NCBI GenBank assembly: GCA_000934665.2
Contig: KZ538428.1
Coordinates: forward strand, 1 to 64,000
Length of the DNA: 64,000 bases
Direction: 5' to 3'
Source: Catajapyx aquilonaris
Taxonomy: Eukaryota
Notes under the pieces: model-generated
Database searches by the model: none
The model's input: only the letters and a program-made list of their open reading frames with translations
What the model was told of the DNA's origin: nothing
Made by a program: the position numbers and the translations under genes
Shown: piece after piece, positions 14,904 through 64,000 of the stretch
Numbering within the stretch: the stretch's first letter is position 1
Layout: every line of letters starts with the position of its first letter

Positions 14904-17742
14904 GGGGCATTCCACGTCAACTCCCCCCTCTCCCAGACAAATCTTTTCCGATTTCCACCAAAACTGAGTATGTTGTAGTACACATGGGTGTGAGCAAGGA
15001 ACTCATTTTGTTTGTCCCTGTGATGCGTGGTTGCATAACTACAGGGTATGAAAGGTGGGGACATTTGCAAATTTTGGCTCCATCCCCCTCTTATTGGAAG
15101 GCCATAACTTTGGAAGACTGGGACATATCCAAAATGCGATTAATGGAATGGGAGGCTAATTTAACACCCTTTCAGATGGTATGAGTCACGTTTGTAAAGT
15201 TTTAGAATTTCGAATTAAAGATTGCGTCCAAAAGTTTGATTAATGTTTTTCTCAGAAATTGGCATTTAAAAAAATATTTGAATTGTGCTTAACATGAATC
15301 CTACATTGTGTTATTGACATTTCCTCAAAAAATCGAGAGTACACTGTCTTGTGTTGCTTGTCAACTGAAAAAACATGTTTACGAAGGTTGCCTCTGTCCA
15401 CCCTCAGTTGGGAGGCCCATAATTGTCAGGAGATTGTTACAAATCCGAAATTTGGTTTATGCATTGGGAAGCTATTTTAACTCCCTTTCAGACAGTCGGA
15501 CTCATGTTTGTAAGAAACCAAAATTTTGAATTAAGATGGCGGTCAATATTTTGATTTGTGATTCTCAGAAGATATGGACATTTTTGAAATATGTTGAATT
15601 GCGCTTAAAATGATGCCTGAGATGTTTTCTTGACGTTTCTGAAAAAAACAACGAGAGTAGACTTACAAGGTTTGCCAACTGTAATAATATTTTGTGCGCC
15701 AAATGCGTTCCGTAAATGAGTGACTTCAATTTGCAATAAATTTTCACCTGTATTGTTGCATTAAAATACTCACACCACACATCAGGAGAAAGCCTGAGTA
15801 AGAACTCTACCTGGTTATAATCAAAATCAGTTTTTGGTCTAGTAAAAAAAACACCACGTGAATTGTAAAAGATTCAAATTTTTAATCGCTCCTGAGGAAG
15901 TAAAAAGAGCAAGAATATTTTTCTTCGTGTGGTGTTTTTTACAAGGATAAGGACATTGATGTTTATTATTACCAGGTAGAGTTCTTACATCAGGCTTTCT
16001 CCTGATGTGTGGTGTGAGTATTTTAATGCAACAATATAATGTACGGAAAATGAGAGAATGATCTGACGTCATCAAAGTTTCCATGGAAATATTCTCACAG
16101 AACAATATGAGTAAACTGTCAACAAAAAGCACCAATGTAAGAAACAATGACGTCAGATCGTTCTCTCGTTTTCCGTACATTAAGTGAAAATTTATTGCCA
16201 GTTGAAGTCATTCCATTTACGGAACACGTTTGGCCTACAAAATATTATTACAGTTGGCAAACCTTGCATGTCTATCTCGTTTCCCCCTCAGAAATGTCAA
16301 GAAAATATCTCAGGCATCATTTTAAGATCAATTCTAAATTTTTCAAAAATGTCCAATTTTTGATAATAACATATCAAAATATTGGACACCATCTTTAAGA
16401 ATAATTTTGGTTTCTTACAAACATGAGTCCGACAGTCTGAAAGGGTGTTTCAACAGCTTCCCATCACATGAAAGAAATTTTGGGGTTGTAACAATCTCCC
16501 GACAGTTATGGGCCTCCAACTGAGGGCAGACACAGGCATCATGAGTAAAAATGTTTTAGTTGGCAAATAATAAAGGGAGCGTAGTTTTTTTCTCTTTTTT
16601 TGCGGCAATGTCGATTAAACAACGTAGGCTTGATTTTAAGTGCAATTCAAATTTTTCAAAAATGTCATTTTCTGAGAAAAACATAAATAACTATTTTGGA
16701 TGCCATCTTCAATTTGATATTTTGATATTTAACAAATATTAGTCCGACTCTCTGAAAGGGAGTTAAAATAGCTTCCTAACGCATGAATCAAATTTTAGAT
16801 TTGCAACAATCTCCTGACAATTATGGGCCTCCAACTGAGGGTGGACGGAGGCAACCTTCGTAAACATGTTTTTGCAGTTGACAAACAACACAAGTGTACT
16901 CTCGTTTTTCTGAGGAAATGTCAATAAAACAATGTAGGGTTCATGTTAAGTGCAATTTTAAAAAATACTTAAGTGTCCATTTCTGAGAAAAAAATTAATA
17001 AAATTTTTTGACGTAATCTTTAATTCGAAATTTTACAACTTTACAAACGCGACTCATACAATCTGAAAGGGTGTTAAAATAACCTCCCATACCATTAATC
17101 ACATTTTGGATATGTCACAATCTGGGGAGGTGTAGATGGCCAAGATGGTAACGTCTCGGCTTGCTGAGTGAAAGGCCCCAGGTTCGATCCCCGCCTGAGG
17201 AGTTTCCTTTCACCTGCGTCAGGAGGGTCTCTGATCTGCATGTTGGAGGTGTCTGGCAACCTAACCTCCTGGGGAACAGCACAAGACCCCTTTACAGACC
17301 TTACACTTGCACTCATGTTCCCTCCTCAAAAATCCCTATCCTTACCCATGTCCCTGTCTCCTTGCACTGGTGAGCAAAGAAAAAATAGTACAGAGTTACT
17401 AGATAACTGATGGTGGTGTGCCACCCCCCTAAAAAGGCTTCACCTTATCACAGGGTAACGAAAAACAAAAAAAAAGTCACATCTTCCGAAGTTGTGGCCT
17501 TCCAACAGATGGTGGACGGCCACATCTTCCGAAGTTGTGGCCTTCCAACAGATGGTGGACGGAGCCAAAAGTCGCAAGTATCCGCACATTTCGCACCCTG
17601 TAGTTATGCATCCATGCTCCGCCAGGACAAACAAAATTAGTTCCTTGTCCACACCCATGTGTACTACAGTACAACATACTCGGTTTTAGTGGAAATCGAA
17701 AAAGATTTGTCAGGGAGGGGGTCCAGTTGACATGTATGCCTC
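14904..17742. mobile_element. 2.8-kb fold-back element with long modular arms and nested hairpins
   Basis: GGGGCATTCCACGTCAACT ... AGTTGACATGTATGCCTC; 14904-~15747 mirrors ~16183-17742; inner palindromes at ~15751-16036 and ~16037-16182; contains a SINE and a 43-bp tandem duplication (17478-17562). Confidence 0.85.
17124..17475 (+). mobile_element. tRNA-derived SINE, family A
   Basis: A box TGGCCAAGATGG, B box GGTTCGATCCC, A-rich tail, TSD GTCACA(A)TCT; the empty site is visible in the opposite arm of the host element (~15110-15130). Confidence 0.92.
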
Positions 17743-30796: not shown

Positions 30797-31081
30797 TGGG
30801 CGTGCCGCCCAGTAAAATATGTAAGGTCATGTAGTGGTTATCGCCACAGCCTTCCCCCTCTGAGGTCTCGAGTTCGATCCCCGGGTCGGACATAGGATAC
30901 TTATGTGGATAGAGTTTTGATGGGTTCACTCCGTGTTCGCGTGGGTTTTCTTGGGGTTCTCCTGTTTCCTCCCACAATCAAAACCCATCACAGCACAAGC
31001 AAATTATTAAAGTCGGTTCATGAAAATATGATCCCCTAAAAGGGGTGAAGGAGACCTATCACGGGGTATCCATTAATAATA
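30797..31081 (+). mobile_element. tRNA-derived SINE with a V-domain-like core
   Basis: B box GAGTTCGATCCC; core CTCCGTGTTCGCGTGGGTTTTCTTGGGGTTCTCCTGTTTCCTCCCACA; TSD TATTTTTTAC. Confidence 0.82.
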
Positions 31082-33335
31082 TATATTTTTTACCTCATAA
31101 GTCTATTGGCTTCAACGATATAAATACATGAATCTTATTTCCGAATTTCCCTAGTACAAATCTAATGTCTCCTGATATGGACTGGCATATTTTTGCTGAT
31201 TGGTGAAAGAATTTATTATAGTGAACAAGAATTCACAGGGTTAAATTTTACGTCCTTCTCTACTTGCATTAACTGGGATAACATTGTTTTTGAACGTACT
31301 GATTGTTTGATAAGGACATTAAGGTGGAAATGAAGCGACTTGCTAATCAAATGAGAGTCTAGAATTGGAATGTTAATAAGAAGGGCTAAAATCAGGGAAA
31401 CATACGCAACCGATGTAGCAGGAAATGCTGTTCAATCCTATGCATTCCATTCGAATCTGCGTTTTAAACTCGATTTAATATGGGCCTATTACCGGCTGCA
31501 AGTTCTTGTGCGCAGGCGCAATTTTCACGACTGCCAACTTAAACATGGTATTTGGAGGTGTGCTTAATATTTGTTATTTTTGATGGAAATCGATTTTATT
31601 CGGTCTTAATTACGAGGTCCCAATTTGTCATGGCATATTTAAAAGTTCAGTTCCGAAAGGGGAGCCTGTAGCTCTTCATTTGTGTCGGATTTGGAACACG
31701 TTCAGTTGGTACGCGTGTGACAGATAGAAGCGGCAACGCAGCAAAGCTCCGGGCCAATTATCGCGTAGCAATGTGACGTCATTGCCGGGTGGATTCGAAT
31801 GATTCGATTATTATATTATAATTATAACTATATAAACTAATATAACGGTTCTGACGTCTGACAAACACCCCCGCCAAGCGAAAATCCTGTGTGAGCCATT
31901 GTGAAAACCATCATACTAACTTGCACTCATATTTCGCGGTCGTATGCAACCGTATCTCGCTACCGTAAACAACGCTACGTTGCCACGTCCTCACTCGAGT
32001 GGAGCAATGTGACGTCACTGGATCATTTTCGGATCGTTTTTCAGCAATATAAATTGAAAGAGCACGGTGAGGCAGGTTTTTCTTTTTGCGGTTACGATCA
32101 GTACATAATTCCCGACATATTCCACATTAAATTTTAAAATTCTCATTTGCTTATCATTTTTTTGTGGACTATTGAAAATTCTGCCATAAGGGCCCATGTT
32201 AAATCGCGAACTTCTGAGCCCTCTAGTTCGCTAATTTGCACGGTGACGTGTATTTTTCTTTGCACCATTGATAAGAGGACACAAAACTGCGTAACATATG
32301 TTTTTTTCATAAAATTCTCATTGAGTGACTCTAGCTTCATTTCCACCTTAAGCAATCCAGCAGTCAGAACTGATTCTGTTGCTGCAGTGGCAACAAATCT
32401 GTTCCAGTTATGGGATTTCTTAAGACAGCAATAAGTGAACCAAGTCTGTGTTAAAGGGGAACCAAGAAGAGACTGCAGGGATTAGGTGGATTTTTCCAAC
32501 TGTTCAGCTCCCCTCCCCGCCTCCCCAGTCCCTATGTTTACCATGGCGATGAATCAAGTAGCCAGGTGGGGAATATTTTTTTCAATGTGAATGTGGGGTA
32601 TTCCGGGTTCCTTTTGTGTCTGGCAACTCTACTTCAAAACCCCAGAAAACCCATACAGTCTTTTCTTGGATGACCTTTAACACATGTGAAATAGCAGGTA
32701 CACCCAATTTCCACTGCCAGTACACAGTATTCCCCCTGCATCTTCCACCCATCACCGAAATAGGTGTCTTACGCACTGATCAGACCTTACTGAACACCTG
32801 CTTTCCGAGTAATTGCAAATTGTCACTACACATCACAGAATTTGGAAACCTAACATACTTTGGAATATTCCAACTGGATTGCAAATGACAGCATCTGATA
32901 TCATAAACCACCAAAGTTCAGAGAATGTCCATGCCAAACAGACATGGCTATTGATCCACCAGTATCCTCGATCTATGGGTCATGAGCCTTTACTGCATGT
33001 GTATGATGTATAGAGAAGTTTCAAGTTGTAGAGTTGACTTGTTACTGGTATGGATGATAATATTATATGGTGTGTACTATCCCGAGCTAAAAGATGGAGA
33101 CAGCAGATTTGGTTTTTTATAGGAGGAGCAGAGCTAACTAAATCCACAAGTTTAATAACTAGTCTTCAGGTGTGATTATGGGTACTTAGACTCCTACTAG
33201 CAATATCTCCCATCATTCCAGGCAACTGTCGCTCTTTCTTTTGTGGTCAGTCATGTGAGTCTTTTGCTTTCTAAAATCCGAAAAATGTCAGGTCCCAAGA
33301 TTGTCAACTGATAGGGTTCAGTAATTATTATCTCA

Positions 33336-35174: not shown

Positions 35175-35663
35175 TACAGCCATAGGTAAGGGGTATTTCT
35201 CAGATATTGAGGATTGTACCTCAGAAATTTTAAGGATTTCTTACGTCCTGAAGTGGTTGTTTTTCACTTATTGGATTGGCCACTAAAGGTTGATAATAAT
35301 CTAACCAGGATCATTGCTGGAAAAAATGAACAGACAATGAATACCAACCATGAAATCCTGGGCAGATTATCTACCTTGAGTATGCTACTGGGCCTGTGTA
35401 ACAGTTTTCAGAACCTACATTTTGACATACACCAGAGATTTCTCCCTTTATGTCTCCATCAGAAAACAACATTATTTTGTGCCTTTCATGAATTAATGAA
35501 AATAATTCAGCAACATTTACCATATTTCTCAATTGAATTGAAACAAAAAGGACACCCTGAAATGATTGAACATGTAAATAACACTCCACCCCCCCCCCCC
35601 CCNCCCAATATAAAAAATTAACTCCCACAAACTCCACAATCAACTTCACTATGGCTCACTGAG

Positions 35664-35942
35664 TCACTGGCATTCTTCCATCTTGATCACAGGGTGAGTA
35701 CTGTCTTCTGCTTCCTCTCTCATGTCAATAGTCAGATCAGGCGGTGAGGGTGGTTCCTCTTTGACGACTGGTTCCTCATCAGGAGACGCTGGTACACCCA
35801 TCAAAACGTCCATTATTGACTGAGGTATATGAGCTCGCTGACTTTCTGTGTACTTCATCACATGAGCAAGAAGAGGGTCCCGAAGTTCAGGCGAAACTGT
35901 CATGACTTCTCGCAGCTGGGTGGTGGGAAGCTGGAGCAGTAC
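35664..35942 (-). CDS. SYMPK: Symplekin exon 3 (terminal)
   Basis: tttcatag|[31 protein letters not shown]...[13 protein letters not shown] to stop; continues PQSFQ from exon 2. Confidence 0.95.
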
Positions 35943-36028
35943 CTATGAAAGGACAATTTTAATACATATCTTTCTTGTGATTAATCCTCTGGACAACTTA
36001 TGCAAGTTTATATGGTGCACATCAGGAA

Positions 36029-37065
36029 AAAGGACAAGGCACAAAATGTATGGGCGAGTGGCCTTCCGTTCGATTTGCCTGAAAATTGGATATGTTGTGG
36101 CCCAGACCATCCTGATCAATGTTAGATAGGGACATTTCGAGGTAGGACCTACAGGGAGCGTGCTATTGACCTCCGAAGGTCATATGGGATATGATCTGGT
36201 TTTCCGTTCGATTTGCCTGAAAATTGGATATGTTGCAGCCCAGACCATCCTGATCAATGTTGGATAGGGACATTTCGAGGTAGGACCTACAGGGAGCATG
36301 CTAATCGCTATTCATCGAGAGGATACTCAATACCATAGAAGACTGCTGTGAGAGAAACCTTCCTTACATTGACCCAATGAATGTTGAAGTGTAGCTGGAG
36401 GAAACTCCAGATGACAACCTTCAAGGAGTAGAATTTGAACCAGATGAATAGGTAATAAAGATTAATAGATAACGGGGAGGTGTAGATGGCCGAGATGCTA
36501 ACGTCTCGGCTTGCTGAGTGAAAGGCCTCAGGTTCGATCCCCGCCTGGGGAACTTTCCTTTCACCTGCGTCAGGAGGGTCTCTGACCTGCACCTTGGAGG
36601 TGTCTGGCAACCTAACCTCCTGGGGAACAGCACATGACCCCTTTACTGACCTTGCACTTCCACCAATGTTCCCTCCCCAAAAATCCCTATCCCTACCCTA
36701 CATCCTTGACTCCTTACACCGGTGAATGAAGTTAATACAGGAAAATGGAGTGAAACGGTGGTACTCCACCCCCCTAAAAAGGCTCAGCCGTATCACGGGG
36801 TAACGTAAAAAAAAAAAAAGAAGACAAGAAAAAAAAAGATTAATAGATAACTTAATGCAATAACCATTGAGTTCCTGGAGACAAGATTATTGTAGTCTAC
36901 TACTCCCCCTATTACCTTCGGAGGACATTAACAGGCTCCCTGTAGGTCCCACCTTAAAATGTCCCTATACTACATTGATCAGGACGGTCTGGGCTACAAC
37001 ATATCCCATTTTCAGGCAAATCGAACGGAAGGCCACTCGCCCATACATTTTGTGCCTTGTCCTTT
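36029..37065. mobile_element. MITE with ~150-bp arms, an internal duplication and a SINE insert
   Basis: AAAGGACAAGGCACAAAATGTATGGGCGAGTGGCCTTCCGTTCGATTTGCC and its reverse complement; 36202-36300 repeats part of the left arm. Confidence 0.85.
36474..36834 (+). mobile_element. SINE family A
   Basis: Same head and body as 17124; poly-A tail; 17-bp TSD AAAGATTAATAGATAAC. Confidence 0.94.
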
Positions 37066-37628: not shown

Positions 37629-37923
37629 AATAATTAATAATAATTCATACCCCGTTATCAGCCACCGGCTGTTTACGGGGGAAGTTTGTTTTGCCTGGAA
37701 CTCTTTGCTTTTCATTTTTACTGTGCTCTTCGGGATAGGATAGGGACGGAAGGAAGCGGCTGTGGCCTATTTATTATACGGAAACAACTCCGGAATTCTC
37801 CTGGAAGGACCGTGGGAAACCACAGAAAACCACGGTCAGAGTTGCCGGCCCCGGGATTCGATCCCAGGACCTCCCGATTAGCAGTCGGACACCATATCCC
37901 CTCCTCCAAACTGCTTCGGTGCC
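37629..37923 (-). mobile_element. SINE family C (tRNA-Ser-like head), tail type 1
   Basis: GACTGCTAATC anticodon-like loop, B box, core GGTTTTCTGTGGTTTCCC...AGGCCACAGCCGCTTCCTTCC; TSD CCATCCAAG(T/A)GATGT. Confidence 0.9.
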
Positions 37924-39213: not shown

Positions 39214-39781
39214 TGTTCTCTTGTTAGTTGGTGCTTTACCAAGTACAGTAATAGTGCAGCAGCAAGCCCAATGCAACATTAGTCTCTCTGCTTTTCCCTC
39301 CTTCTCTTCCCCCCATCTGCTCGCTGAGATATTTCTAGCACAGAAAGTGCACCAAAATAATATATTGAGTTTGACAATAATTACTGGCACAGCTGTATTA
39401 AAGTCATATCAATTTTCAGACCTGTCATGCTTCTTTCATTGATAGTCTCAAAAAGTGACTTACTGACATGCAAGTATTCAGCAATTCAATGTATTCAAAA
39501 TAGCAGTTTGATATGTAGCCTAAATCCATAGTTTCAAGATGTATTGATACATTGGTAGATAATTGATGCTTGCTGTTGGTTTGGCATCTACAATCTGCAG
39601 ACAGTAATCAAATTATGTGCAAATTAGGCACCATATCAAACAATTTAATTAATTAATTTATTTATTTATTTATTCATTTGTTACTAATTACTTTTTAGCA
39701 GTGAGGAACTGTAACTAATGACTTTAAATTCAGGTAGTAACACAATTTAGAAATAATTATACAGCATTATACATCATCTAC

Positions 39782-42379
39782 CTGAAAACTCTGTGGCTTG
39801 GTTCTCTGGCAACACTTGATGAATCCTTCCCACACTTTCTTCTGCTGCCAGACCTGCTTCAGGATCAGACGCTGAAGAATGTTCATTACAAATCCAATGA
39901 GGCGGGGATAGAGGGTCAGGGACTGAATCACAGTTCGCATCAGTAGTGTTGGGAGGGGACTCTGCTCCATCAATTGCTGCATTACTACTGCCAGTACCTC
40001 TTGAGTATAGATCTGGATCTCACCAAAGCAAAGGGATGTGGCCTTGATGACTGTCTTCACATCACATTTGGCTGGATCCACATTGTGCAAGGCTACCATA
40101 AGCTCTGCAGGTGTTAGAGGACTGGTGTGGTTGGCCACATCAACATGCGTGCCTAGCAAACGATTGAATACTTCCTTCACCACCACAGGATTTAGCTTTA
40201 TGAGCTTGGGCAAGGCAGCAATCACCTCCTTCTTAGTTAATCCATTCAGCACGGGGATAAGGAAACGAACATCTGACACTCTCTTGTGGTATAGATCACG
40301 CACACGTGCCACCAACTGAGAGCTTGGCGGAGTCTTATCAGTGAGAACATGTATGACACGGGTGACCAGAGTCTCTGCTCCTTTTGGGCAGTTCTCAACG
40401 AGGCGCAGCAGTTCTGGAGAATCCATTCCCATGCCTTTGACAGGTTTCTCCAATAAACGAAGGACAGTTCGTTTCACATCTGCATTAGTTTGCACATACA
40501 CCATGGCCAACTCGTGAATCATTTTTTCATTCTTAGGCAATAGGGCCAGGTAAAGGTACAAGCAAGCCCGCACCACATCCTCTGTCCACTGAAGGACAAC
40601 ATCTGGACGGCCTTTGTCAGGACCAAAAAGAATTTTGGGTGGATGAGGTAGGAGCAGAAACTTCAAATACATTATTGCGTATTCCTCAACAACTTGGCAC
40701 AGGTCACCACGGTCATATAGATATTTTATGGCATCAATGGCTCGAGTGCGCAGGTCTACTTCCTCATAGGCATTGTACTCCAAAAGTACATTTAAAAATA
40801 GCAGCTGCTTGGATGGACGCCTGATAACTAGTTCCTTTAGAAGGGAAATCCCAGTTGCTGCCTTTCCCTCTTCCTGACACACTTGTTTCAGCTGATCAAT
40901 AGCGTCCTCAGTCACTAGTGGTGCTTCCAAGTACAGTCGGAATAGCAAAGCATCCTTGTCCTTTGCTTCAGATCGCTCCAAAAATCCACAAACAAATCTA
41001 CATAGGACTTTATTGTAAGTATCTTCATCAACGTTTGTAGCTCGCAGCAAGTTGTATCCTTGAATAAACCCTTGCATGTGGCTGTACTCCTCATACAACC
41101 ATGCAAATGCCAAGTCACATCTTTGCCTCACATCTTGAAAAATAAATTCTGAGATAATCTGCCGCACTTCCTCATCCATTTGTACTGCCAGAGTGGCAAT
41201 AATTTTTCCGCGAGACTCAGAGGCACCACCAAGAACACAACTCCTCTCAGACTGTAGAATCCGTTCAATAGCTCCAAGCAGCAGACTCCTCCGATCCCTC
41301 GGTTCCAGTGGACGGGTGATCTCAGCTAGTTTCAGGACTCGCATTCTGTGCTTCTTATGAGCGACGCCAGTTGGCAACAATGATGCAGGAACAGGTTTAT
41401 GCTTCCTCTCACCATATGTATCACTTGAGAGTGTGCCTCCTATTAATGTGGCTATGGGACTTTTTGTGGCCACTGCAACAGACACAACTGTGCTATCATC
41501 ATCCTCGTAGTCAAAGTTGAATGGTTTTATATCATCTAGCCTCGCCTGCTCTGCCCCTGGTCCAAGTGAAGCAGCAGTGAGCTGTGTTGATAACAGTCTT
41601 GCCACATGCCTGATTTGACCTTCTGTGCCTGCAGCTGCAATAGGTGTATACACTGCACTGAAATGAGGTGGCATAGTGTCTGGAAGTTTCCCCATGGAAA
41701 TAAAAACCAGGTCAGCTGCCACTGCTGGTGTGAGATGTTCCAAGACATGACGTTCTGTGACATCTACAGCTTCAGAGCGCCTCTTCTTGACGGGTGGTTT
41801 ACTAACAATGCTAGAAGCATCATCATCATCATACTCTTCTTCTTCCTCATCTTCCTCCCCATCCTCTTCTTCATTAAGCCTCACTCGCTTAACCCCAGTT
41901 GTAACTGCATCTATCCTGGCATGTGTCCGCTTTCGCAACAGGTCAGTTCGTGGGAAGCAACGTGATACCTCCTGCTGTGTAGCACCCAGGTCTGTCAGGA
42001 GAGTGGCAATGTTGTTGCGATACTCACTTGTACTCGGATGCCTCAGTAACCCTAGCAATTTAAGTTTGAGGTGCTTCCGGACTGAGCTCACCTGTGACTT
42101 CCCTAGAGTTGGGGGAAGGTTGGCATGGAGCATTTCAAGTGCACCCACAGCTTTTGCCATTAATTGTGGTCGCATCTGTGCTGCAAGGGTCAAGGTGCTT
42201 ATGCAGGTCATTAAATTGGCACTGCTGATGTGTGGTGAGCCATGAAACTGGAGAAGTTTTTCAAACACTGCTCTTGCTTCTTCCTCCAGCTTGCGTGGCC
42301 TGGCCACTTTGAGGGTGAGAGGGACATCGTCCAAACAAAACTCCTGTTCTCTTGTGAAACTGTTCTGCTCTGTGTAGGT
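39782..42379 (-). CDS. SYMPK: Symplekin exon 2 (2598 nt)
   Basis: tttccttctag|ACC ... CAG|gtagat; symplekin motifs LHANLPPTLGKSQVSSVRKHLK, YTPIAAAGTEGQIRHVARL, ENCPKGAETLVTR, DLYHKRVSDVRFLIPVLNGLTKKEV, VWEGFIKCCQRTKPQSFQ. Confidence 0.98.
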
Positions 42380-45870: not shown

Positions 45871-47070
45871 CGACGTAGCGCGCCAGCCTCAGGACAGTGA
45901 GGCCTACAGGTTGCAGCTGCCCAATGACCGCCGTAATTCCCAGTCGGATTAACCCGGCATAGATGGCGTTGCCAACCCTCCTTTCCGGTCAACGAGGTAT
46001 ACAGTGTAAATCAGGTGTATATCATGGCCTCGTGTAAATATATTTATAGGCCTACCCGGGCCTACCTCGTTTATTTATACGATTTATACCTCGTTGTTTC
46101 CGTAGAGGTCTCTACTTTCAGATACTCGTACCAAGCTCGTACTACGTCTTGTTCTTGTCCACGTTCTCGTTGTCGTCTTTGCATTTGGCCGGGCCTTGCT
46201 GCGTCTCAGGTGGGAAATATATTGCGTATGATCATCGCCGCTCCTGGCACTGCTGTTTGCACCATATCGTGTCCATAATTACGGCAACAAGACCGGCATG
46301 TGGCATCGAGCTTCTCTTCTGAACCCAGGAAATGAAGTCATCGCTGCTAATTCCCATGTGGATACAAAGTATAGAATATATATTTACCCGTGGATAGGGC
46401 TTTCTTATTGCGATGCATGGGGAACGAAAACCATATGTGCAGTTCTTAACTGGTTTTAGTTCCTGAGCACTGCGCTATCCTTATTAAACCGCTCCTCGCC
46501 ACCTTCGCGCCGTCCAGTAGTGTAACAGTGCCAATGATAGCTGCTGCATTCGCCATGAACATTTTCATGCTGTTTTTCTTCATATAACATAACTTACAGA
46601 GTTACGCGGAGTTACGTAAAAATTTACACACGCAAGGTTGCGGAATGATCCAGCAGCAGTAGATAAGTTTGGTACTTAATGTAATTTAAAATGTGACCAA
46701 AAAATTGCAATACTCTCATCTGTAGTTCATTATTGAACTCCTAATTTACCAACTCTGATGTAGATTTTTCAGATGTGTTTTACATTTACAAAGTGCCTTT
46801 GAATATGAATGAGAAGGTCATACTGTAAACACAATGATAAGTTATTATTGTTGTCTGAATGGAAAAAGCTGGTTATGAATATATAGTGATTATTATCTTG
46901 GATTCTACCAATATCATTCCTGACATATATATTATCATTTTGTTCTCTTGATATTGTTCATCACATTCAGATTGAAGTCAGTTAAATCCATATGAAGGTG
47001 ACTTAATATTTCAGGGCCCTATCTACTTACGTGATCCAGATCATTTTAGATTTTAGGATTTACAATATTA

Positions 47071-47328
47071 TTATTATTATAATAAATAGGCGCTCCATTA
47101 GGGGGTGAAATACCACCATTTTACCACTCAATGTTTCGTAACTTTTTTCTTCACACGTGGGTGGGGCCAAGGATAGGGAAGGAAGGAAGCAACCCTGGAA
47201 TTATCCTGGGGGAACCGTGGAAAACCACAGAAAACCATGGTCAGGGTCGCCGGCCCCGGGAATCAACCCCAGGACCTCTCGATTAGCAGTCGGACTCCTT
47301 AACCACTACACCAACCTGCTTTGGTGCA
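47071..47328 (-). mobile_element. SINE family C, tail type 2
   Basis: Family C head; (TAA)n tail; TSD ATTTACA(A/G)TATTA. Confidence 0.85.
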
Positions 47329-47496
47329 ATTTACAGTATTATAGTAACGTCATTTATAGTCTGTGCTAGCAGTGTCTCCTTTGGTATATTTTAGAGATTT
47401 GAAGATGAGGCCCCTTCTAATCTCTGACAAATCCATATTACAAAGAAAATGGGCTAAGGGTGGTAATGTACTGTACCGTATTCTTTTCAAGGTATA

Positions 47497-48054
47497 CGAG
47501 GGGCGTTTGATAAGTAGCCTACAGTAGTGAGCCTACCTGTGATGGAGTTGTCCCAGGCGAATGGCACTTTAACACTTCTCTACGTAGCCCTCCAGGAGTA
47601 TGATGTACTCCTCCCAAACAGTGGTCCAGATTTGCATCCATTCGCAAAAAAAAAGATTTGTCTTGGTCATCACACCATTCATGTACACTGTCCGCGATGG
47701 CATCATCACAGTTGAAATCTGTTCTTTCAGGTGTTGTTTGAATGTTATGAACGGGTGATAGTCAGATGGTGTCACCCACCAATTTGTCACAATCTGACAA
47801 TCAACTGTTCCCAACACTCAAACGACACCTGAAAGATGAGCATTTCAACTTCGGTTTCAACAGTGATGAGGCTGTCATGGACGGTGTCCGTGAATGGTGT
47901 GATGACCAAGACAAATCTTGTTTTTGAGAAGGGATGCAAAGCTGGACCACTGTTTGGGAGGAGTACATCATATTCCAGGAGGGCTACGTAGAGAAGTGTT
48001 AAAGTGCCATTCGATTGGGACAACTCCTTCACAGGTAGGCTCAAACGCCGCTCA
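47497..48054. mobile_element. Mariner fold-back of two inverted 3' ends
   Basis: TA|CGAGGGGCGTTTGA ... TCAAACGCCGCTCA|TA; arms carry transposase C-terminal residues (PSDYH, EGYVEKC*). Confidence 0.85.
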
Positions 48055-49278
48055 TATGCTCCACAACTTAATATTACAATATACTCTATAGCAAACAGTG
48101 ACAAATGTGATCGTAATGGCCAGAAGAAAATGGCCTATAATGCAAAACCTGACAAATGCAGGCAGAATGTTATTCATACTCTATGGGTGGAATTTTTGTC
48201 TCACTCTGCTAACTTGGGAATACCAATGTCAACACTGGTACTGGTACTGTTAAGTTAGTAACTACGAGGTAGGAGCCAAAAGTTTCTGGCCTGACTATGT
48301 TCCAGGGGTGACAGAAATAAAACAACTATAGTGTCAGGTAGTCCCAACCGTGAGCAGAGGGATGTATCAACAGTTCAAAAAGAATTGTCCCAGTCATCCT
48401 GATGTGTGTGCTGCCCGCTCGACACACACCATGTAACTTACATGGTGTGTGTCGAGCGGCCAGCCCACATGTCAGGATGACTGGGACAATTCTTTTTGAA
48501 CTAATGATACAAGTTTCACCCGGCAATGTCAGTCAGTCTCTTAGAAAAGTCAATGTTAGTCAGATGAGTTGCAATATGGTGAAAATCGAGTTCCTCACCA
48601 TGGAACGCCTTACTACCATATCTATTAAACAGTGCTTGGGTGGTGTGTATAATGAAACTTCCCCTTCATATTCCACCATAAAGTCTGAATGAGCTAAGCA
48701 GATTCGTATGGGTTAGAGCATCAAAGACGAGCGATGCGACGGTCGGCCGTGGAGGTGCTGACAGCCGAGACCGTCTCTCCCGTGGAGCAGTGGGTCTGAA
48801 AGCAGGCCCTTGAAGGTGAAGCAACTCTTAGCATGTTGGGGCTATGAGACACCACCTTTCCTGGCATTCTTTAGGAACACCTCACATGAAAAGGCCAGCG
48901 CAAGATGGGTGCCCTGACTTCTGTCCGAAATTCAGAAGCAAAAGTGTGTAGCTTGTGTCAAAACATTTTCAGACCTTCGCCATGGCAAACAGAAAGAATT
49001 ACTGGAGTCCATCGTCACAGGAGATGATACTACGGTCCTGCGCTATGGTCCTCCATCAAAAAGAGAATTCATGGATTGGCGTAGGGAGGACAGAAAGTGG
49101 CCGAGTGACCCTGTCGACCAAAAAGACCATGGTGGCGGTTTTTTAGAATTCCAATAGAATCTTAGTGATAGACTTCAAGGATTAAAACACGATTGTCTAC
49201 GGGGAGTCCTACTCTGGCCTGCTACACAGATTTCGTGATGCCATGAAGAATCAGAGATGTGGGAAACTGAGTTGTGGT

Positions 49279-49568
49279 ACCGAAGCAGGTTGGCATAGTG
49301 GATAAGGTGTCCGCCTGCTAATCAGGAGGTCCTGGGTTCGAATCCCAGGGCCGGCAACTCTGACCATGGTTTTCTGTGGTTTCCCATGGTCCTTCCAGGA
49401 AAATTCCGAAGTTGCTTCCGTAATTAATAGGCCACAGCCGCTTCCTTCCGTCCCTATCCTATCCCAAAGAGCGCAGTAAAATGAAAGCAAAGAGTTCCAG
49501 GCAAAACAAAAACTTCCCCCCTAAAGAGCCGACAGGCTGATAACCGGGTATGAATTTAATTTAATTTT
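49279..49568 (+). mobile_element. SINE family C, tail type 1
   Basis: B box GGTTCGAATCCC; 14-bp TSD AACTGAGTTGTGGT. Confidence 0.92.
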
Positions 49569-49873: not shown

Positions 49874-50201
49874 GGGGAGACGGAGTGGCACTGCGGTAAT
49901 GTATGCACCCACGGATGCAAGGGTCCGGGAATCGATCCCAAGCCCGAGCTTTCCCCCCTTCATCTTGTGCAGAGTTTAGGGGTCATCTCTGGCTTTGTCT
50001 CGGGTGGGATTTCCGACAGACTAACCACCCGGGGGAGTTCACAAAAATGACCAAAGCAACGTCACTGCACATTGCACATCCCCTCCTGACCATCCCCCCT
50101 CACTCATGGTACCCGGGCGTTACGAAGAAGGACCAAGCTTGTACACCTAAGCAAATACAGGTACCATGCCAGATGCCCAGAAAGGGTGGTGCACTAAACC
50201 C

Positions 50202-50269
<68 letters not shown>
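49874..50269 (+). mobile_element. SINE family B with (TTA)n tail
   Basis: Head GGGGAGACGGAGTGGC; 14-bp TSD TATATTGAAAAATG. Confidence 0.92.
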
Positions 50270-51290: not shown

Positions 51291-51966
51291 CTAGTAGCAG
51301 ACCCGTTGCCAAATTTTGGAAACACTNCCCCCCCCCCCTGAAAGTAGTAGGCCTACATAGGCCCCTACTCGCCCCTAGACTGGCGCATAGACAGTCCCTC
51401 TGTACACTATATTGCCATACATGTAGGGAATGCCGAAGGTAATACTACATGTACTGCCCGTTGGTGATAACTGATGGGTAATCACACAGATAAAGCCCAC
51501 CAGCAGGGTGCTATAACCAGCACGTGTCTCGCCTCCATTGAAGTGGGTCTCACCTTCTCTGACTGACAAAATAATGATGCTCTCTAAATGTTAAATGCAG
51601 CAAGTGATGAACCATGGTTAATGTTGTATTACCTTTACCTCACATAAAGCGGCATGCTGGTGGTCAACCAGCATACCGGTATAACCCAGGGGTGGCCGGC
51701 ATCCCGCAATAACCGAGGTAGATTTCCAGAATTTTGATCCTTGTCAAACATTTTTGAATGCTTCTGGTACCATACTGAAATCAAGACTGAAATAATGTTA
51801 TGGTGAAAAAAGGGTAAGTGTACTGTACAGGGCTGTGAGAAAATGCACAAGTTCTTCTATTGCAGAGCATAGAGTGTGACCAATCCCATCGTCAGCCTGC
51901 TTTGAGAGGGGAACCCCCTACTCTATTACAAAGGATCAAGGCAAACTCCTTCCGTCCTATTAATTA

Positions 51967-52231
51967 CACCGAAGTAAGTTGGTGTGGTGGTTAAGGAGCC
52001 TGACTGCTAATTGGGAAGTTCTGGGTTCGAATCCCGGGGCGGGCAACTCTGACCATGGTTTTCCACGGTCCCCCCAGGATAATTCTGGGGTTGTGTCCGT
52101 ATAATAGGCCACAGCCACCTCCTTCCTTCCCTATCCTTGCTTGGCCCCATCCAATGGTAGTACTCCACCCCCCTAATGGAGCGCCGATTCTCCCAACCGG
52201 GTATAAATAATTTAAAAATAATAATAATTAA
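51967..52231 (+). mobile_element. SINE family C, tail type 2
   Basis: CACCGAAG head, GACTGCTAAT, B box GGTTCGAATCCC, AT-rich tail. Confidence 0.87.
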
Positions 52232-52538: not shown

Positions 52539-52614
<76 letters not shown>

Positions 52615-52945
52615 TGATTGGGTATTCGGCTAGCCCCAGAGGGGCCTTCTGCCAGACCTTTATTATGATGGTATACAATTTTGGAATCCTATTTTTGAAG
52701 CGCCCGGGCCCACAGGCGGGATGACAGGAGGGGATGTGCAAAGTGCAGTGAATCTGACGCTGTGGCCATTTTTAGTGAGCTCCCCCGGGTGGTTTAGTCT
52801 GTAGGAAATACCACCCGAGACGAAGCCAGAGGTGACCCTGAACTCTGCACGAGATGAAGGGGGTGTCCCCGGGCTGGGATCGAACCCGGGACCTTAACAT
52901 CCGTGGGCGCGCACGTTACCGCGGCGCCACTCCGTCTCCCCTCAA
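52539..52945 (-). mobile_element. SINE family B
   Basis: B box GGTTCGATCCC; long (TTA)n tail; 13-bp TSD GAGTCAGTTATAA. Confidence 0.93.
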
Positions 52946-52976: not shown

Positions 52977-53335
52977 GGGGAGGTGTGGTGGCCAAGATGG
53001 TAACGTCTCGGCTTGCTGAGTGAAAGGTCCCTGGTTTGATCCTCGCCTGGGAGTTCCCTTTCGCCTGCGTTGGGAGGGTTTCTGACCCGTACCTTGGAGG
53101 TGTCTGGCAACCTAACCTCCTGGGGAACAGCACATGACCCATTTGTCGGTTGGTATCGCACTAGCACCTACACGTTATTCCCGCCCCAACAATCCCTATT
53201 CTTACCCATTGTCCTTGATTTCCCTGCACCGATGTTTGAAGAAAATAAAAAATTCTCAGAAAAATTCAAAAATGGTTGTGTAATCAACCCTCATAAAAGG
53301 GCTCTGTCCCTCTAATGGGGTTAAAAATTAGAGTA
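52977..53335 (+). mobile_element. SINE family A
   Basis: Family A head and body; TSD TGTTATAGC. Confidence 0.9.
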
Positions 53336-54560: not shown

Positions 54561-54915
54561 ATTATTTTTATTTTATTATTTTTATTTTTATTACCCCGTG
54601 ATGTCCCTTACGGGAGCTATAGGGGGTGGCATACCACCATCAGTTTTCCGTATTTCTTCAATCTCCATGCAAGGACTTGTTCAGGATATAGGGTAGGGAA
54701 AGGGATTGTTGGGGAGGGGACACTTGTGCAAGTGCATTGTCCTAGCCTTTGGGCCATGTGCAGTCCCCCAGGAGGTTAGGTTGCCAGACACCTCCTTGGT
54801 GCAGGTCAGAGACCCTCCCGACGCAGGTGAAAGGAAGTTCCCCAGGCGGGGATCGAACCTGGGGCCTTTCACTCAGCAAGCCGAGACGTTACCATCTCGG
54901 CCACCACACCTCCCC
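54561..54915 (-). mobile_element. SINE family A
   Basis: Family A head and body; TSD AGTG(T/C)TGGAT(C/T)ATT. Confidence 0.92.
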
Positions 54916-57412: not shown

Positions 57413-57704
57413 GTAAGAGTGCTGCAGTGCTCTAGAGGTGAACAAGGCAGAAGCCAATTCTATTAACCCTGGAACCGTGGCGTATGCATTAAAATTACAA
57501 TTACAATGAACTGTTTGCCATTTTTTGAAAGTATATAACAGGAAGTGCATGTTGTTATTATTTTTTAAATTATTTATTATCCCATTTCTTAGGTACATAC
57601 CTATTTTGGGGGGGAGTTGCCTCTAGTAGGGTTACAATTCTGAGGACACATTTTGAGGACATAGATCGAGACAAATTACGTGTTACATACTGACACTTTT
57701 ATCC

Positions 57705-60700
57705 TTAATGTTGTACTATATGGCAATTAACCAATTTACAGTCAGAGTAAGTAGAAAAAAAAAGAAAAAGAAAAAGCCTGGGCAGAAATGTATATATTTT
57801 GGAGCATAAAATAAAGTAAAGTAATCGCCCTTTGGAGTGGACCGGCCCAGTGATCAAGAGATGTGATATTTTAATTTTCATCTCAATGCCACAAAAGATG
57901 ACATTTTTGTGGAGCGTCAGAAAGAAAAGGTGAAGGGAGTAAATGTTCATTTTTGTTAGGTCGCCAAAAATTATGTGTATCAAATCCAGGGAGACCAGTG
58001 GAATTTCCGCTAAGTGCTTTCGTCGTGCCCCCAAGATGATGCTGCATTCGTAAAGTAAATGGTGTAAGGAGGTAGGGCTTTGTATAGAGCATACGGAACA
58101 GTAATCATCATCATTAAAATTTATCCTGCTTGTCCTTATTCCAAAGCCATCCGATTTATTTCTCAGATTGATTGCTAGCCTTGTCATTTCAATTGGTAGA
58201 TTAAAGTCATTAAACTGTAAATATGGAGCTGGAGCAAGTCCATTATAATAGTCCTTGTAATATGAATATCTTGAAGATTTCTCATATGCAAGGAAATCCA
58301 ATTGAATAGAGTGGTCTATTAAGGTTTGTATTAATATATTTGGATTAACACTGCCAGGATCATTGAGCCAGCAATCCACGTCCGCACCCATGTTGCGGAA
58401 TAGTTTCCCTAAGTTCCACATCCACGGGATTTGGCTTGAGGAGGGAGATTTTAAATAAGATAAGGCTTGATGTAACGGTAGACTTGGGTCCTGACAGTAT
58501 ATTTTAACAATCAACTTGCTTCGGTGGCTGTGTTTATCGGAAGTGTAAAAAATTTTCTGATAAAAAAAGATTGAACCTTTTCAACCTCCAACAAATAGGC
58601 TAGTGACCAGATCGAAGCGGCGTATAATGCGGCTGTAATGATTTGCTCGTTGAATAGTTTCATGGCATGTGTAAACTTACGTATTTTTAACTTCATTAGC
58701 GTCGGCCAAAGCGCATTTGTAAGTGCGGTGCCTTTCGTACACACGCTATCAAGGATAGCTCTAAATGATCCTGACGCTGAGAAAATAAACCCTAAATACC
58801 TATATCGGGAGCATATTTCTATATGATGTTGTTGGTGCCAATGGAATTGTATTTCGTGGGGTAACCTACCTTTCCTGTGAAATACCATAATTTTAGGTTT
58901 GTTTAAATTGATAGTTAATCCTTTAGCATCTAAATAATTTGCTAATCTGTCCAAGGATCTTTGAAGATAAATTTGTTGGTCGGCCGAAAGCACTAAATCG
59001 TCCGCAAATTGTAAACAGTGCAGGTCTTTCGTATTTGGACCAAAATTAACTCCTGGAATATCATTGTTGTCCCAGAGTTCAGCTATATCCGCTAAAAATA
59101 GATTGAATAGTATAGGTGATAGTCTCTCGCCCTGTAGCACTCCTCTGGTTATTCTGATTTTTGGTCCTTCGTCGTTCCTCTTTATTGTGGCCGTCCCATA
59201 GATAGCAAGAATCAGCTGCAGAAATCTTCCTGCCAATCCCAGGGTGGTTAATTTACGGAATAATTTATCATGAGATATGTTGTCAAATGCCTTGGTTAAG
59301 TTGATGAAGGCTGTGTAGAGCTTACGATTTGGTTTGACCATGTACTTCTGAATTAAAATATTTAATGTGAATAAGTGATCCATTGTACTTCTACCAGGAC
59401 GGAAACCTCCTTGGAATTCCGGCAAAATATTCCAATCCTTTACCCATCTCCTTAATCTATCGTCCATCATAGCCGTAATTATCTTCATAATTACTGTGTT
59501 TATTAGAGCAATTGGGTGATAGCAGCCCGGATCTGTGGTGTCTCCACCTTTAAAGATCGGAATTACTAATTCTGCCGCCCACTCTTCAGGAAAAACTGAT
59601 TCTTTCAATATACTATTTATTACGGCCATGAAGGTGTTTCTCGTAGGAAGGGATAAAGTCTTCCAGAGTTAGTTTGTAATTAAATCTGGTCCAGTTGCCT
59701 TGCTTTTTTTGAGTCTAAGAAGGACATTTTCTAGCTCAATCATCTCAAAATCCTGATGTGGAGACCAAATGGGAACCTCAAACAGCAATTTGTTTGACGT
59801 TGTGTCGTAATAGTCAAACAAATAATCTAGCCATTTGTTCTGTGGTAGCTCCGTTGTTTTCATTTTAAATTGGAATTTTTTTATCGTAGGCCAGAAGTCT
59901 CTCAGACTCTTTGAGTCAAGCAACTGTTGGATGGTACTAGAAAAATACAATCTTTTTTTTGCCACTAAGCACTTTCTATGCATCCTATTGTTTTCTCGAA
60001 ATGCACATTTATCCTTATCATCTAGCAATGCTCGCCATTTCTTTAAAAGCTTTCTGGTTGTTTTTTTCATGGATTTTAGATCCCAGTTGAACCACACAGA
60101 TTTAGTCATCGCCGCAATGGGACCACCAATCTCCGTGATAAGACCAAAATCCATTAATACTCCCGAGATTGACTTTATTAGGAATTGGGCTGCATTTGTA
60201 GTCGTCATTTCGCCAACTCCGGTCCAGTCCAATTGGTCGATTGTATCATTAAGGAAAGAAAATTCTACCTTCGGCCTTATTAGTCGATTTGCTTTCATAA
60301 TAGTTTGGGGAGTGTCTGGGACTAGAACCATAAATTCTGTCACTATCGCAAAGTGGTCCGAAGCGATATTATCACTTACTCTGAAGTCACTTATTTCTTT
60401 TTGCAATGTGCGTGAACATAACGCGAGGTCAATTACACTGCTTCCCCTCTTTCCTATAAAAGTAAATTCCCCATACGGATCCGAATTTGTGGTTCCATTC
60501 AATACACACAATGAATGGTTATCTATGAATTGAATAAATCCTCTCCCCCTCTGGTTTTCTGTTTCATCTCTTGATCTTCGAATATTTAGGTTGTCAATAT
60601 CGGTCCCATAGAAAGCTATACTGGTTGATTGTAGTCTGCAATTCTAGCGTTAAATTCCCCCATAAACAGTGATCGATCCTCATAGTTTTCGCTATTTGAC

Positions 60701-61110
60701 ACCTATTCTTGTAACTTATCCAACACTGAGCGGTAATTTGGGGAGGGCAGGATATAAACTAAACCAATTGAAATTTTTCCCACTGGTGCGGGGGGGGGGG
60801 GGNNNNNNNNNNNNNNNNNNGAGCAGGGAGAGATTTATATGTAGAACAGTGAAATTCAGATCAATTGCCATTTTTCCCGGATTTAAACTGTTGTGTACCA
60901 GGAGTAGCAAACCCCCAGAATACCTGCCGACCTTTGCCGACCTTGTTGCAGGGGACTGATAAATTTTATAGTTTTTTACCTCCACCAGCTTTTTTTCATC
61001 CTGCATCCAGGTCTTGGTAAAACCATAACATCCCGGTGTAGGAAGTAAGTCCTGGAACTCCCTGATAGCCTCCTCAATACGTAGACCAGCAATATTCCAC
61101 GAGCCGCATT
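57705..61110 (-). pseudogene. LINE ORF2 (AP endonuclease, reverse transcriptase, C-terminal Cys/His motif), frameshifted
   Basis: SWNIAGL, GRYSGG, SVIDLAL, SDHFAI; QGGFRPGRSTMDHLF, LTKAFD, GVLQGERLSPILFNLF, LQFADD, YRYLG; CSVC..LHHLLYEC; split over ORFs 60716-61402, 59669-60511, 58511-59629 and 57705-58514; N gap at 60803-60820. Confidence 0.92.
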
Positions 61111-61402
61111 TATACACCTGAGTAGATAAGCTTGCACTGGTATTGGGAAGGTCGGAGACACTTGGATGGCTTGCGCCATAGGCATTGGAAACAGGAGCAC
61201 TAAAAGAATCGGACTTGGTGTGTGATTTGGGGGATAAAACTGCACCGACACTCAAGAAAAGAGACATATCGAAACTGACTCGTGGGTTAACTCTGGTTGG
61301 ATCAGGTGGACAAATCGGAATAACACATGCACTTGCACTCATCTTTGAAGATTCTGTTACACTAGGGATCACTAGAGTTAGAGGGTGAACTGAGCTGGTC
61401 AA

Positions 61403-62287
61403 TCACTTGTTTGATGATCGCACCGCTGTTGCATAGGTAGAAGTTGCTCCCGATGCTCCTTTGCTGAGTTTGCTTGTTGGCTTTGGATCCAAGGGCGATG
61501 TTGAGCTGCCCCTTTTGTTTCGAATGGTAGAATGGAGCTCGTTCTGCAATGGTTCAGCGGTGTCCTCACAACATTCGGTGTTCTGTAGGTTTTCCAATGT
61601 AATAAATCTTCCGTCTACCCGTAGTTTGTCGCGACAAATTGACGCTTTCTTGCCCATCTCCTTGCACTGCCGCACATATGGAAGCAATTTCTTTCGTATC
61701 TCACGGGTCTCGAGTGAGAAATCCTCCGAAATAGAAACTTGTGAGGACTTCAATTTGTATGCGTATCGCTTCTTCGTCTTTGTAGAAGGAGCATCTCATT
61801 GATCTCAAGATGATTGGTCTCACTCGATCCGGGATGAATCTCCCCATTCGATGGCTACGCTTGATAGGCAAATTGGGGTTGGGCGGGAGTACCCCAAGTA
61901 TTTAAAATTATAATTGCAATGAACTTTTGCCATTTTTTTACAGTATATAACAGGAAGTGCATGTTTATTCTTCAGTGCTTTAAGTTCTGTGTCCCCCCAC
62001 GATTCTTGAGGAGCCACCCCTAATATAATGATATTTTTCCTTCTGCCTCGGTCATCCATATCCACAATCTTAGATTCCAGTGCCAGAATCTTGGAGGTCG
62101 AAAACTCGAGCTGGTTTGCAAGGTCCGTCACCATGGAATGGAGCTCGTTCACCTTTTCATTCTGCTCTTCCGTCTTCTTATCCAGGATCTTCGTGAGCTC
62201 TGCCGTTACCTTCTCTGCTACCAACTCAATTGCCCCCTGAATCTTGGTATCCAGCTTCTTCTCCAAGGCTTGCAGTAGGTCAGCCAT
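61403..62287 (-). pseudogene. LINE ORF1 (coiled coil plus RRM/CTD, L1-ORF1-like), interrupted
   Basis: Coiled coil then DDRGRRKNIIILGV, IKRSHRMGR..RPIILR, ISEDFSLETREIRKKLLP, DKLRVDG; foreign patch at 61895-61971. Confidence 0.88.
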
Positions 62288-62650
62288 TTCACAGGAAGTG
62301 CATGTTTATTCTGAATTAGCGATCATTTTAGGCATTGTTCAAAGAATTATTGTATATAGTCAATAGATTGAAAAGTATTATATGAAAATTAATAAAAATT
62401 AAAATATGGCGTGGGGTCCTAAAAGACCCCACGCACGGTTCCCTTAACTTTCAGGCACGGCACGGTTCCAGGGTTAATAACAGCATAATATAGCACAACA
62501 ATTTTTACGTTTGGATCACGATCTGATTGGTTACACTGTTGCAACATATGTCATAATGTGATAGAGCGCTAGAAAATTCTGAACTACAATCGACAATATC
62601 TTGGCATACCCTATATTGTATTGTATTTATTGATTTATTCTGTTTTACAG

Positions 62651-62732: not shown

Positions 62733-62790
62733 GTAATTGGAAGCTGGGTAGACATAATTATGATAAAATACTGATACCCCTGCAGTTGAA

Positions 62791-63204
62791 AGGGACACGC
62801 CATTCAAAAAACAAGTTTGGCTCTAAAAATTGGGCAAAAAATCCTGAATCCGAATGTGCAATCTGTTTTTCGCTACACGGAAAGGTAATCCCAGGGCGAT
62901 GGGTCAAAGTCGGGAAATTCAAATAGTGCGCAAGAAGCTGGCCGTCCGCTAGCGACGCCCTCGGGACCTTCGGAACGGGGGGGCTGCTTCCGCCTGCCCG
63001 CGCGCTTAGGGCCATCCCAGAGCAGTGCAGCCCTCCAGTTCCCCTGTTCCCCGCGTGGCGGTGCCGCTCATTAGCAGACGACACACGTTGACACCTCGCC
63101 CTGGGATTACCGTTCTGCGTAGCAAAAGATGGATTGCACCTTCGGATTCAGGATTTTCCCCCCGATTTTTAGAGCCAAACTTGTTTTTTGAGTGGAGTGT
63201 CCCT
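62791..63204. mobile_element. Kolobok-like MITE
   Basis: (TGAA)|AGGGACACGCCATTCAAAAAACAAG ... CTTGTTTTTTGAGTGGAGTGTCCCT|TTAA; ~115-bp arms. Confidence 0.8.
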
Positions 63205-63407
63205 TTAAGGACTCATCACATGTATTGGACTTTTAATGGTTTGAGTCAAAAGGGTCAGTTATTTTATGATTCATGCCTAATGGCCATGTATAGTTGCGAT
63301 CAAAGTTCATTGATGAGCGTGTTACTGGTTGATAAATCAGATGTTAAAAATCCTGTTCATAGCCTAGTCTTGTATGTAAAGAATTTCATAATCTCATGTT
63401 TCTGCAG

Positions 63408-63592: not shown

Positions 63593-63763
63593 ATAATAAT
63601 TATATAATAATAATAATAATAATTCTTGGGTAGTGCCTGACCCTATATAGGGTATGCGGCATGGACCTTTATTGTAACTTGTAGTACATAGACCATATTT
63701 TTGAAACGCCCGGGCCCATGGGCAGGATGACAGGAGAGAATGTGCAAGGTGCAGTGCAATGTC
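63593..63763 (-). mobile_element. SINE family B, 3' half (cut by a piggyBac MITE)
   Basis: (TTA)n tail; body matches 52690-52750; ends at TTAA 63764. Confidence 0.8.
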
Positions 63764-63767
63764 TTAA

Positions 63768-64000
63768 ACCTGGAACCGTGCCATGGGGTCTTTTTGGACC
63801 TCAAGTATTTAAAATTATAATTACAATGAACTTTTGCCATTTTTTTACAGTATATAGCAGGAAGTGCATGTTTATTTTGAATTAGCGATCATTTTAGGCA
63901 TTGTTCAAAGAATGATTGCATATAGTCATTACATTGAAAAGTATTATATAACAATTAATAAAAATTGAAATATGGATGGGGTCTGAAAAGGCCCCACGGC
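63768..64000. mobile_element. piggyBac-type MITE, uninterrupted copy of the LINE's host family (runs off the window)
   Basis: TTAA|ACCTGGAACCGTG; colinear with 57467-57553 plus 62291-62430. Confidence 0.87.

Follow-up and report, generated by a model that had tools for sequence, protein, structure and literature searches.

A two-tier 3'-terminal stem-loop with a covarying inner stem shared by a group of LINEs and five SINE heads in Catajapyx aquilonaris

How a LINE reverse transcriptase chooses its RNA has been worked out for few clades. In a 64,000-nt stretch of contig KZ538428.1 of Catajapyx aquilonaris (the window, meaning the whole stretch analyzed), a broken LINE copy and SINE copies with different heads end in what appears to be the same RNA fold. 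This raises the question of whether the fold is a recognition tail, where the SINEs obtained it, and what is conserved in it, structure or sequence. The fold has a basal stem and an inner hairpin, separated by an internal loop of approximately 4-5 by 5 nt in which A residues are conserved, and an A/T-rich repeat follows it (Table 1).

Table 1. LINE and SINE features of the window
Feature	Position	Strand	Remarks
Broken LINE copy	57554..62290	-	ORF1 and ORF2 in pieces; APE and RT domains
LINE ORF2, APE piece	59669-60643	-	Pfam
LINE ORF2, RT piece	58511-59668	-	Pfam
LINE ORF2, C-terminal Cys/His finger	57705-58580	-	
LINE ORF1-like frame, coiled coil	61403-62290	-	RRM-like by eye; interrupted near 61890-61970
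LINE 3'-terminal two-tier stem-loop	57581..57614	-	same tail in family copies
C-run of the LINE fold	57614-57608	-	followed by A-rich linker
Inner 5-bp stem of the LINE fold	57603-57599/57594-57590	-	followed by linker
G-run of the LINE fold	57583-57581	-	
Optional upstream hairpin arm, G-rich	57615..57623	-	pairs with start of C-run; decayed in the window copy
A/T-rich terminal repeat of the LINE	57554..57580	-	trinucleotide repeat in better copies
LINE target-site duplication (TSD), 16 bp	3' copy 57538..57553, 5' copy 62291-62306	-	direct reading
SINE A copy	17124..17475	+	fold 17424-17455; upstream hairpin present
SINE A copy	36474..36820	+	fold 36769-36800; 17-bp TSD
SINE A copy	52977..53325	+	fold 53288-53320; tail type resembles LINE lineage L134/L167
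SINE A copy	54570..54915	-	fold 54594-54626; in subfamily pair with U-A/A-U compensatory swap
SINE C copy	37630..37923	-	fold 37650-37681; 9-bp TSD
SINE C copy, tRNA-Ser-like head	49275..49565	+	fold 49516-49548; 14-bp TSD
SINE C head on A-type pre-tail and tail (tail exchange)	51966..52230	+	fold 52168-52201
V-type SINE copy	30826..31085	+	decayed fold 31033-31066
SINE C copy, tail stops within inner loop	47040..47330	-	3' half of fold absent; AT-rich tail next
SINE D copy, different tail	52610..52940	-	
SINE D further copy, different tail	49875-50205	+	
SINE D remnant, different tail	63610-63760	-	

All nine tails quoted in the preliminary description of this DNA are present letter for letter, at the places and on the strands given there. 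A scan of the window for the motif (C-run, A-rich linker, paired stem, linker, G-run and AT-rich tail) yielded 7 matches, compared to a mean of 0.27 (maximum 1) in 60 block-wise dinucleotide shuffles, and with stems of at least 4 bp there were 5 matches versus 0.03 in the shuffles. With 3-bp stems and the AT-rich-tail condition dropped, the numbers were 8 and 2.65 (maximum 7), and hence 3-bp parses alone are weak. The strict scan passed over two of the nine quoted tails (53288 and 54594), and its match at 49982 was rejected as the antisense of another SINE. The two-tier fold is the minimum-energy structure in seven of the nine window copies, the ones at 52168 and 31033 folding differently; the folding stability of the window copies is ordinary (z from +0.4 to -2.3), and an Rfam search matched no family.

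In the family of the window LINE, the fold forms the genuine 3' end. Fifteen matches to the LINE 3' region were found across the 285.6-Mb assembly; the family copies end in the same tail, and three independent ones (L004, L005, L008) continue into ORF2. This confirms positions 57554-57700 as the LINE 3' end and rules out a separate SINE tail at 57554. The upstream hairpin arm is a feature that had been overlooked. At the first inner pair, two subfamilies of the family (L049 and L002) differ by a compensatory swap, and three copies (L003, L005, L010) carry loop duplications at the hairpin. Moreover, two tiny LINE insertions (L012, flanked by a 15-bp TSD, and L015) start right at the foot of the inner hairpin and have one additional complementary base, which suggests stalling or fold-back at the hairpin.

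The ORF1-like frame showed no Pfam family above the cut-off. The ORF1 is broken at 61890-61970 by about 80 bases similar to the target site and its 3' flank, possibly the result of a template jump or of two insertions into one site. The LINE is nested in a non-coding element (57440-57553 and 62291-62480) that has inverted-repeat ends with TTAA-type sites at its borders, and a second copy lies near 63760-64000; we take this element to be a piggyBac-like MITE. Long inverted-repeat pairs, typical of MITEs, are also seen at 1010-1600, 9168-10456, 13528-13827, 28960-30333, 34059-37065, 47528-48043 and 62789-63206. In addition, the window contains a symplekin gene with a single exon of about 870 codons (39767-42379, minus strand), whose C-terminal part has 87-89% identity to tick, odonate, cockroach and centipede proteins, as befits an arthropod host. 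SINE copies are numerous in and around the region of this gene.

The window LINE is one member of an extensive arthropod radiation of APE-RT LINEs. Two C-terminal domains used as protein queries gave 151 matches each, mostly at about 25-47% identity outside the query's family; 48 lineage representatives were chosen by hand, and 46 of them were placed in a C-terminal tree. Five ORF2s are intact (1,114-1,283 aa, with Pfam PF14529/PF03372 and PF00078), and the APE and RT domains are also present in the window ORF2 pieces, this combination being common to many clades. The group is probably the RTEX clade (RTE-X), a label that we assume from sequence motifs. RTEX elements are described, in the available part of one source, as having a substantial ORF1, unlike RTE/BovB (PMC3905857). 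Comparison of the RT with PDB returned only L1 and R2, equally distant, and neither the homologues retrieved nor the matching Atlas clusters bore a clade name.

In approximately 36 of the 48 representatives, an outer stem, an internal loop or bulge and an inner hairpin directly precede the A/T-rich repeat, as judged by eye on tails placed by hand and with no shuffle control; in ten others the minimum-energy fold differs, often with the upstream G-rich arm competing, and two are odd. The position of the fold is constant across lineages with about 25-47% amino-acid identity. A short terminal repeat lies directly 3' of the stem-loop in both LINE and SINE tails, and many LINE lineages have a polyadenylation-like hexamer 3' of the fold. 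Many LINE lineages have an additional hairpin upstream, formed with the first bases of the C-run, which in some of them rivals the outer stem; SINE types A and D share this hairpin, and it is absent from V-type tails and from the main type of C tail. Deep lineages depart from the plain C/G run in their outer stem, whose sequence has changed while remaining paired (L059, L063, L064, L071, L114, L116, L122, L124), and the inner stems are specific to LINE families. The LINE-type tail pattern has 381 matches genome-wide versus 69 in the control.

Elsewhere, a metagenome scan with a protein query found nothing, eight metagenome pattern matches were attributed to chance, and a contig search of other genomes with a single protein gave no match. 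An alignment search of other genomes yielded 11 LINE loci on contigs of metagenome-assembled genomes (MAGs) at 28% profile identity; the six that reach the ORF end, which are distant and may be old or cut copies, have no C-run/G-run fold. The fold may be restricted to this lineage. The contigs L322-L332 are assigned to bacterial MAGs (Sedimenticola, a gammaproteobacterium), have a GC content of 35-38% and carry eukaryote-type LINE ORF2s, probably reflecting host contamination.

The inner stem covaries across LINE tails, SINE tails and SINE subfamilies. In structure-blind MAFFT alignments, compared with 500 shuffles that ignore relatedness, 85.8% of cells are paired in 29 LINE-type tails and 89.2% in 28 SINE tail types, with 26 double-change cells versus 7.8 shuffled in the former and 34 versus 13.2 in the latter, values reached by 0/500 shuffles in either case. 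ORF evidence accompanies 24 of the LINE-type tails, the other five (L149, L164, L221, L229, L235) having none in the DNA examined. Slid registers score lower in both alignments. The number of double-change pairs shows no clear excess over the shuffles (46/500 for LINEs, 408/500 for SINEs), and RNAalifold recovers the architecture with a weak covariation term (-0.22 kcal/mol, three inner pairs only).

The same is seen more cleanly between subfamilies, which were contrasted by leaving variable positions free in the search pattern and counted by eye. In particular, the first 100 of 245 matches to one SINE tail have 55 U-A and 43 A-U pairs, with 2 mispaired; all 47 matches to another have 32 A-U, 9 G.U, 5 G-C, 1 A.A and 0 A.C; the V family has G-C and A-U subfamilies. 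Each swap may represent one or two events. The compensated subfamilies have loop and linkers in common, which suggests that the change took place inside the SINE lineage.

The covariation check proposed earlier therefore gave a positive result in both alignments, LINE and SINE, as the excess of double changes over relatedness-blind shuffles, and the view that the inner stem is maintained by pairing and not by sequence holds for LINE tails, SINE tails and subfamilies. The hairpins at 17424 and 36769 resemble decayed versions of one common hairpin (compare L016 and L035), and the V copy at 31033 also looks decayed, its quoted 3-bp stem being off the register of the family's 5-bp stem; thus, some of the stems previously listed as compensated are products of decay.

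Sequence is conserved in other parts of the fold. The outer stem is unchanged in 28/28 SINE types, although this is partly built in by the C-run and G-run of the search patterns. An A two bases 5' of the G-run, demanded by no pattern, is present in 36/40 LINE tails (one of the 40 being a misfiled V tail) and in 55/59 SINE tails. Given the conserved outer C/G stem and linker A, what had been called a structure-based rather than sequence-based signal is better described as structure plus sequence. The apical loop is not conserved: both its length and its sequence differ from one LINE family to another and between SINE subfamilies, which sets the fold apart from the L2 tail proper. In particular, a single SINE C stem is combined with loops of several lengths, each in several copies.

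SINE heads ending in the fold are five: A, C and V, joined by D and E. The main SINE-type tail pattern has 3,443 matches genome-wide versus 17 with the reversed control, and the V-type pattern 1,027 versus 1; 200 kb of unselected genome contain only few tails. ARAGORN identified tRNA-Ser in head C and tRNA-Gly in head E and no tRNA in heads A, V and D, which were read by eye. Of the 34 full-length SINEs inspected, V excluded, 25 have TSD-like matches of 8-31 bp (one is a microsatellite match, and 8-mers may be due to chance), which together with the ARAGORN calls in C and E characterize tRNA-derived SINEs. The V domain of the V copy and the resemblance of the C body to Inv/Deu-SINEs are labels that we presume.

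Tails and heads occur in various combinations, as read by eye. One tail type is found on heads A, D and E (L176, L244, L211), C heads are combined with A-type pre-tails (e.g. at 52168 in the window), and head D has the fold elsewhere in the genome and a wholly different tail in the window copies, evidence from within this genome that tails were exchanged. SINEs that combine a C head with an A-like middle part (e.g. the L167:1-400 region) show that the bodies are mosaic, and for this reason the families are not wholly unrelated. Hence, the suggestion that at least three unrelated SINE families share the fold is surpassed in number and is not supported with respect to unrelatedness, the tails being homologous. 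Convergent folds in unrelated families are ruled out by the shared linkers and pre-tail. With 808 candidates, and 39 further matches at 89-97%, the second tail class of SINE D is both numerous and young; a search for its partner LINE found none. The SINE C copy that stops within the inner loop probably reflects internal priming or a later deletion.

As judged from sequence comparison, the SINE tails share homology among themselves and with the tails of LINE lineages other than the window family. The likeness to LINEs starts at the C-run, upstream of which each SINE type has its own sequence. The best match is an E-head tail (L252) with a LINE tail (L188), 20/22 inner bases being identical. For six of the 28 SINE types, the match to a LINE tail exceeds that of random hairpins with the structure preserved (p<0.05), and for 22 it does not, so that most SINE tails would have diverged since, or their donors lie outside the sample. 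Among the 29 LINE-type tails, the one of the window LINE ranks 22nd-29th for 26/28 SINE types; with the remaining two it comes 14th and 17th. Moreover, the hairpin pattern of the window family has nine genome matches (control 23), namely six LINE copies and three chance matches, and no SINE. With no SINE carrying its hairpin and the worst tail match, the window family is not the source, and the tails come from other members of the group. The initial proposal that a LINE with an APE-RT ORF2 shares its 3' fold with different SINE heads is thus supported for the group, 3' homology being found with its other lineages and not with the window family.

The position of the fold, its shared homology, covariation, tail exchange and insertion signatures are observed. 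We consider it likely that the fold is a reverse-transcriptase recognition tail of the stringent type, spread among SINEs by tail exchange and then drifting under the pairing constraint. By analogy with L2, ORF2p would bind the fold and prime target-primed reverse transcription on the terminal repeat, and a tRNA-headed RNA ending in the fold would be mobilized in trans. Judging from the junctions, the SINEs may have acquired their final ~40 nt from LINE lineages outside the window family, and the difference between LINE and SINE sequences upstream suggests capture by template switching at the C-run. The tails would then have been passed among heads and drifted, only pairing-preserving changes being kept. 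The conservation pattern suggests that the enzyme most likely reads the basal stem, the internal loop and the helix geometry, while the inner-stem sequence and the apical loop matter little. Against this reading are the unexceptional folding energy, the ten lineages with another minimum-energy structure, the SINE C copy at 47040-47330 with no 3' half of the fold, and the six distant LINEs of other hosts, which have no such fold 3' of ORF2.

A strict one-to-one partnership, where each SINE tail type is captured from, and read only by, its own LINE family, and covariation reflects many donors, is possible but rather doubtful. It accounts for the L252-L188 pair, the six types above the null, and the family-specific inner stems of LINEs, and there is a precedent in L2, where ZfL2-1 and ZfL2-2 are described as reading only the cognate loop (PMC4176376, available part). 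It accounts poorly for the 22/28 types that match no sampled LINE above the null (the sample comprising 100/381 and 40/40 LINE-type pattern matches), for compensated subfamilies with common loop and linkers within one SINE family, and for several loop lengths on one SINE C stem. The fixed position of the fold across divergent lineages and the conserved loop geometry and linker A argue against the improbable alternative that pairing is kept by a mutational process, namely template-switch repair of quasi-palindromes in replication or reverse transcription, and inherited from few masters with no selection on RNA. One-step compensation of this sort is reported in the accessible text of PMC8794818, and the loop duplications, together with the L012 and L015 insertions, suggest that the hairpin is a slippage site; still, 9/47 G.U versus 0/47 A.C is a strand-specific RNA pattern, even though some G.U may be post-insertion decay.

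Equally improbable is a role of the fold in RNA 3'-end formation, RNA stability or binding by ORF1p instead of reverse-transcriptase recognition: the polyadenylation-like hexamer of many LINE lineages fits such a role, but five SINE heads have retained the fold, and no sequence upstream of the C-run, even though tRNA-headed SINEs are transcribed by Pol III and would have no need for a Pol II 3'-end signal. Finally, the window family as the partner mobilizing these SINEs by pure shape recognition is very unlikely. It has the same geometry and the compensatory swap at the first inner pair, but it shows the worst sequence match to the SINE tails, its hairpin pattern is found on no SINE, and the window copy is broken.

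The principle that a SINE borrows a LINE tail is already published for CR1, L2 and plant L1. According to the parts of the cited papers available, stem-loops shared by LINEs and SINEs with compensatory changes are known for CR1 and L2 in bivalves (PMC4824008) and for monocot L1 (PMC3472496; PMC3747384), and mosaic tails and tail exchange have also been reported (PMC11481361; PMC5786205; PMC4758252; PMC5804259). In bivalves, CR1-14_CGi with BivaV-SINE2 and BivaCORE-SINE1, and L2 with BivaCORE-SINE2, resemble the present case in that different bodies, including a V-SINE, share one LINE stem-loop with compensatory changes, and a tail change by template switch was proposed there too (Nishihara 2016, PMC4824008). 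As presented in that source, the bivalve systems involve CR1/L2 and few consensus comparisons, while the present case has a probable RTEX partner, LINE lineages that coexist by the dozen, five SINE heads and compensatory changes between SINE subfamilies. Eel UnaL2/UnaSINE1-2 (Nomura 2006, PMC1636434) and zebrafish ZfL2-1/-2 (Hayashi 2014, PMC4176376) likewise have, in LINE and SINE alike, a stem interrupted by an internal region, with a short terminal repeat after it. In these, as the same texts describe, the apical loop is conserved and confers specificity, with proven function, whereas in the present fold no part varies more than the apical loop, sequence conservation is concentrated in the basal stem and the internal loop, and recognition is inferred.

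The monocot L1/SINE 3' hairpin (Ohshima 2012, PMC3472496) similarly has a variable stem with compensatory changes and conserved flanking bases; it belongs to plants and the L1 clade, has a conserved loop triplet and is single-tier as described, unlike the two-tier fold studied here. Bivalve HCD-SINEs (Martelossi 2024, PMC11481361) and published tail exchange (Kojima 2018, PMC5786205) provide homologous LINE-derived tails on different SINE superfamilies and one head with several tails, as here, the partners there being CR1, CR1-Zenon, L2, Nimb, RTE and Vingi; RTE is absent from the accessible text of PMC11481361, and RTEX from that of PMC5786205. In the literature covered, no RTEX-SINE tail partnership was found, though Repbase reports, subscription journals and supplements, lying outside the search, may hold one; in their available text, PMC10294476, PMC5753468 and PMC3905857 mention RTEX with no SINE tail partnership. 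New features of the present system are the likely RTEX partner, its breadth and the variable apical loop.

This genome is a natural mutagenesis series, with dozens of LINE families with intact ORF2, each having its own version of the fold, and thousands of SINE copies in subfamilies that differ by single compensated pairs. The series marks positions that are free (inner-stem sequence, apical loop) and those that are fixed (basal stem, linker A), and it makes family specificity versus cross-mobilization directly testable. A more speculative possibility, to which we give limited credence, is that ORF2 proteins of the clade read shape, that is, the basal stem, the A-flanked internal loop and any apical hairpin, with little family specificity. 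If so, dozens of LINE families and five SINE heads would share a communal address and cross-mobilize, and the SINE tails would evolve free of any single partner. Such recognition would be a mode between the stringent cognate-loop recognition of L2 and the relaxed poly(A) recognition of L1, and the first RTEX-SINE partnership.
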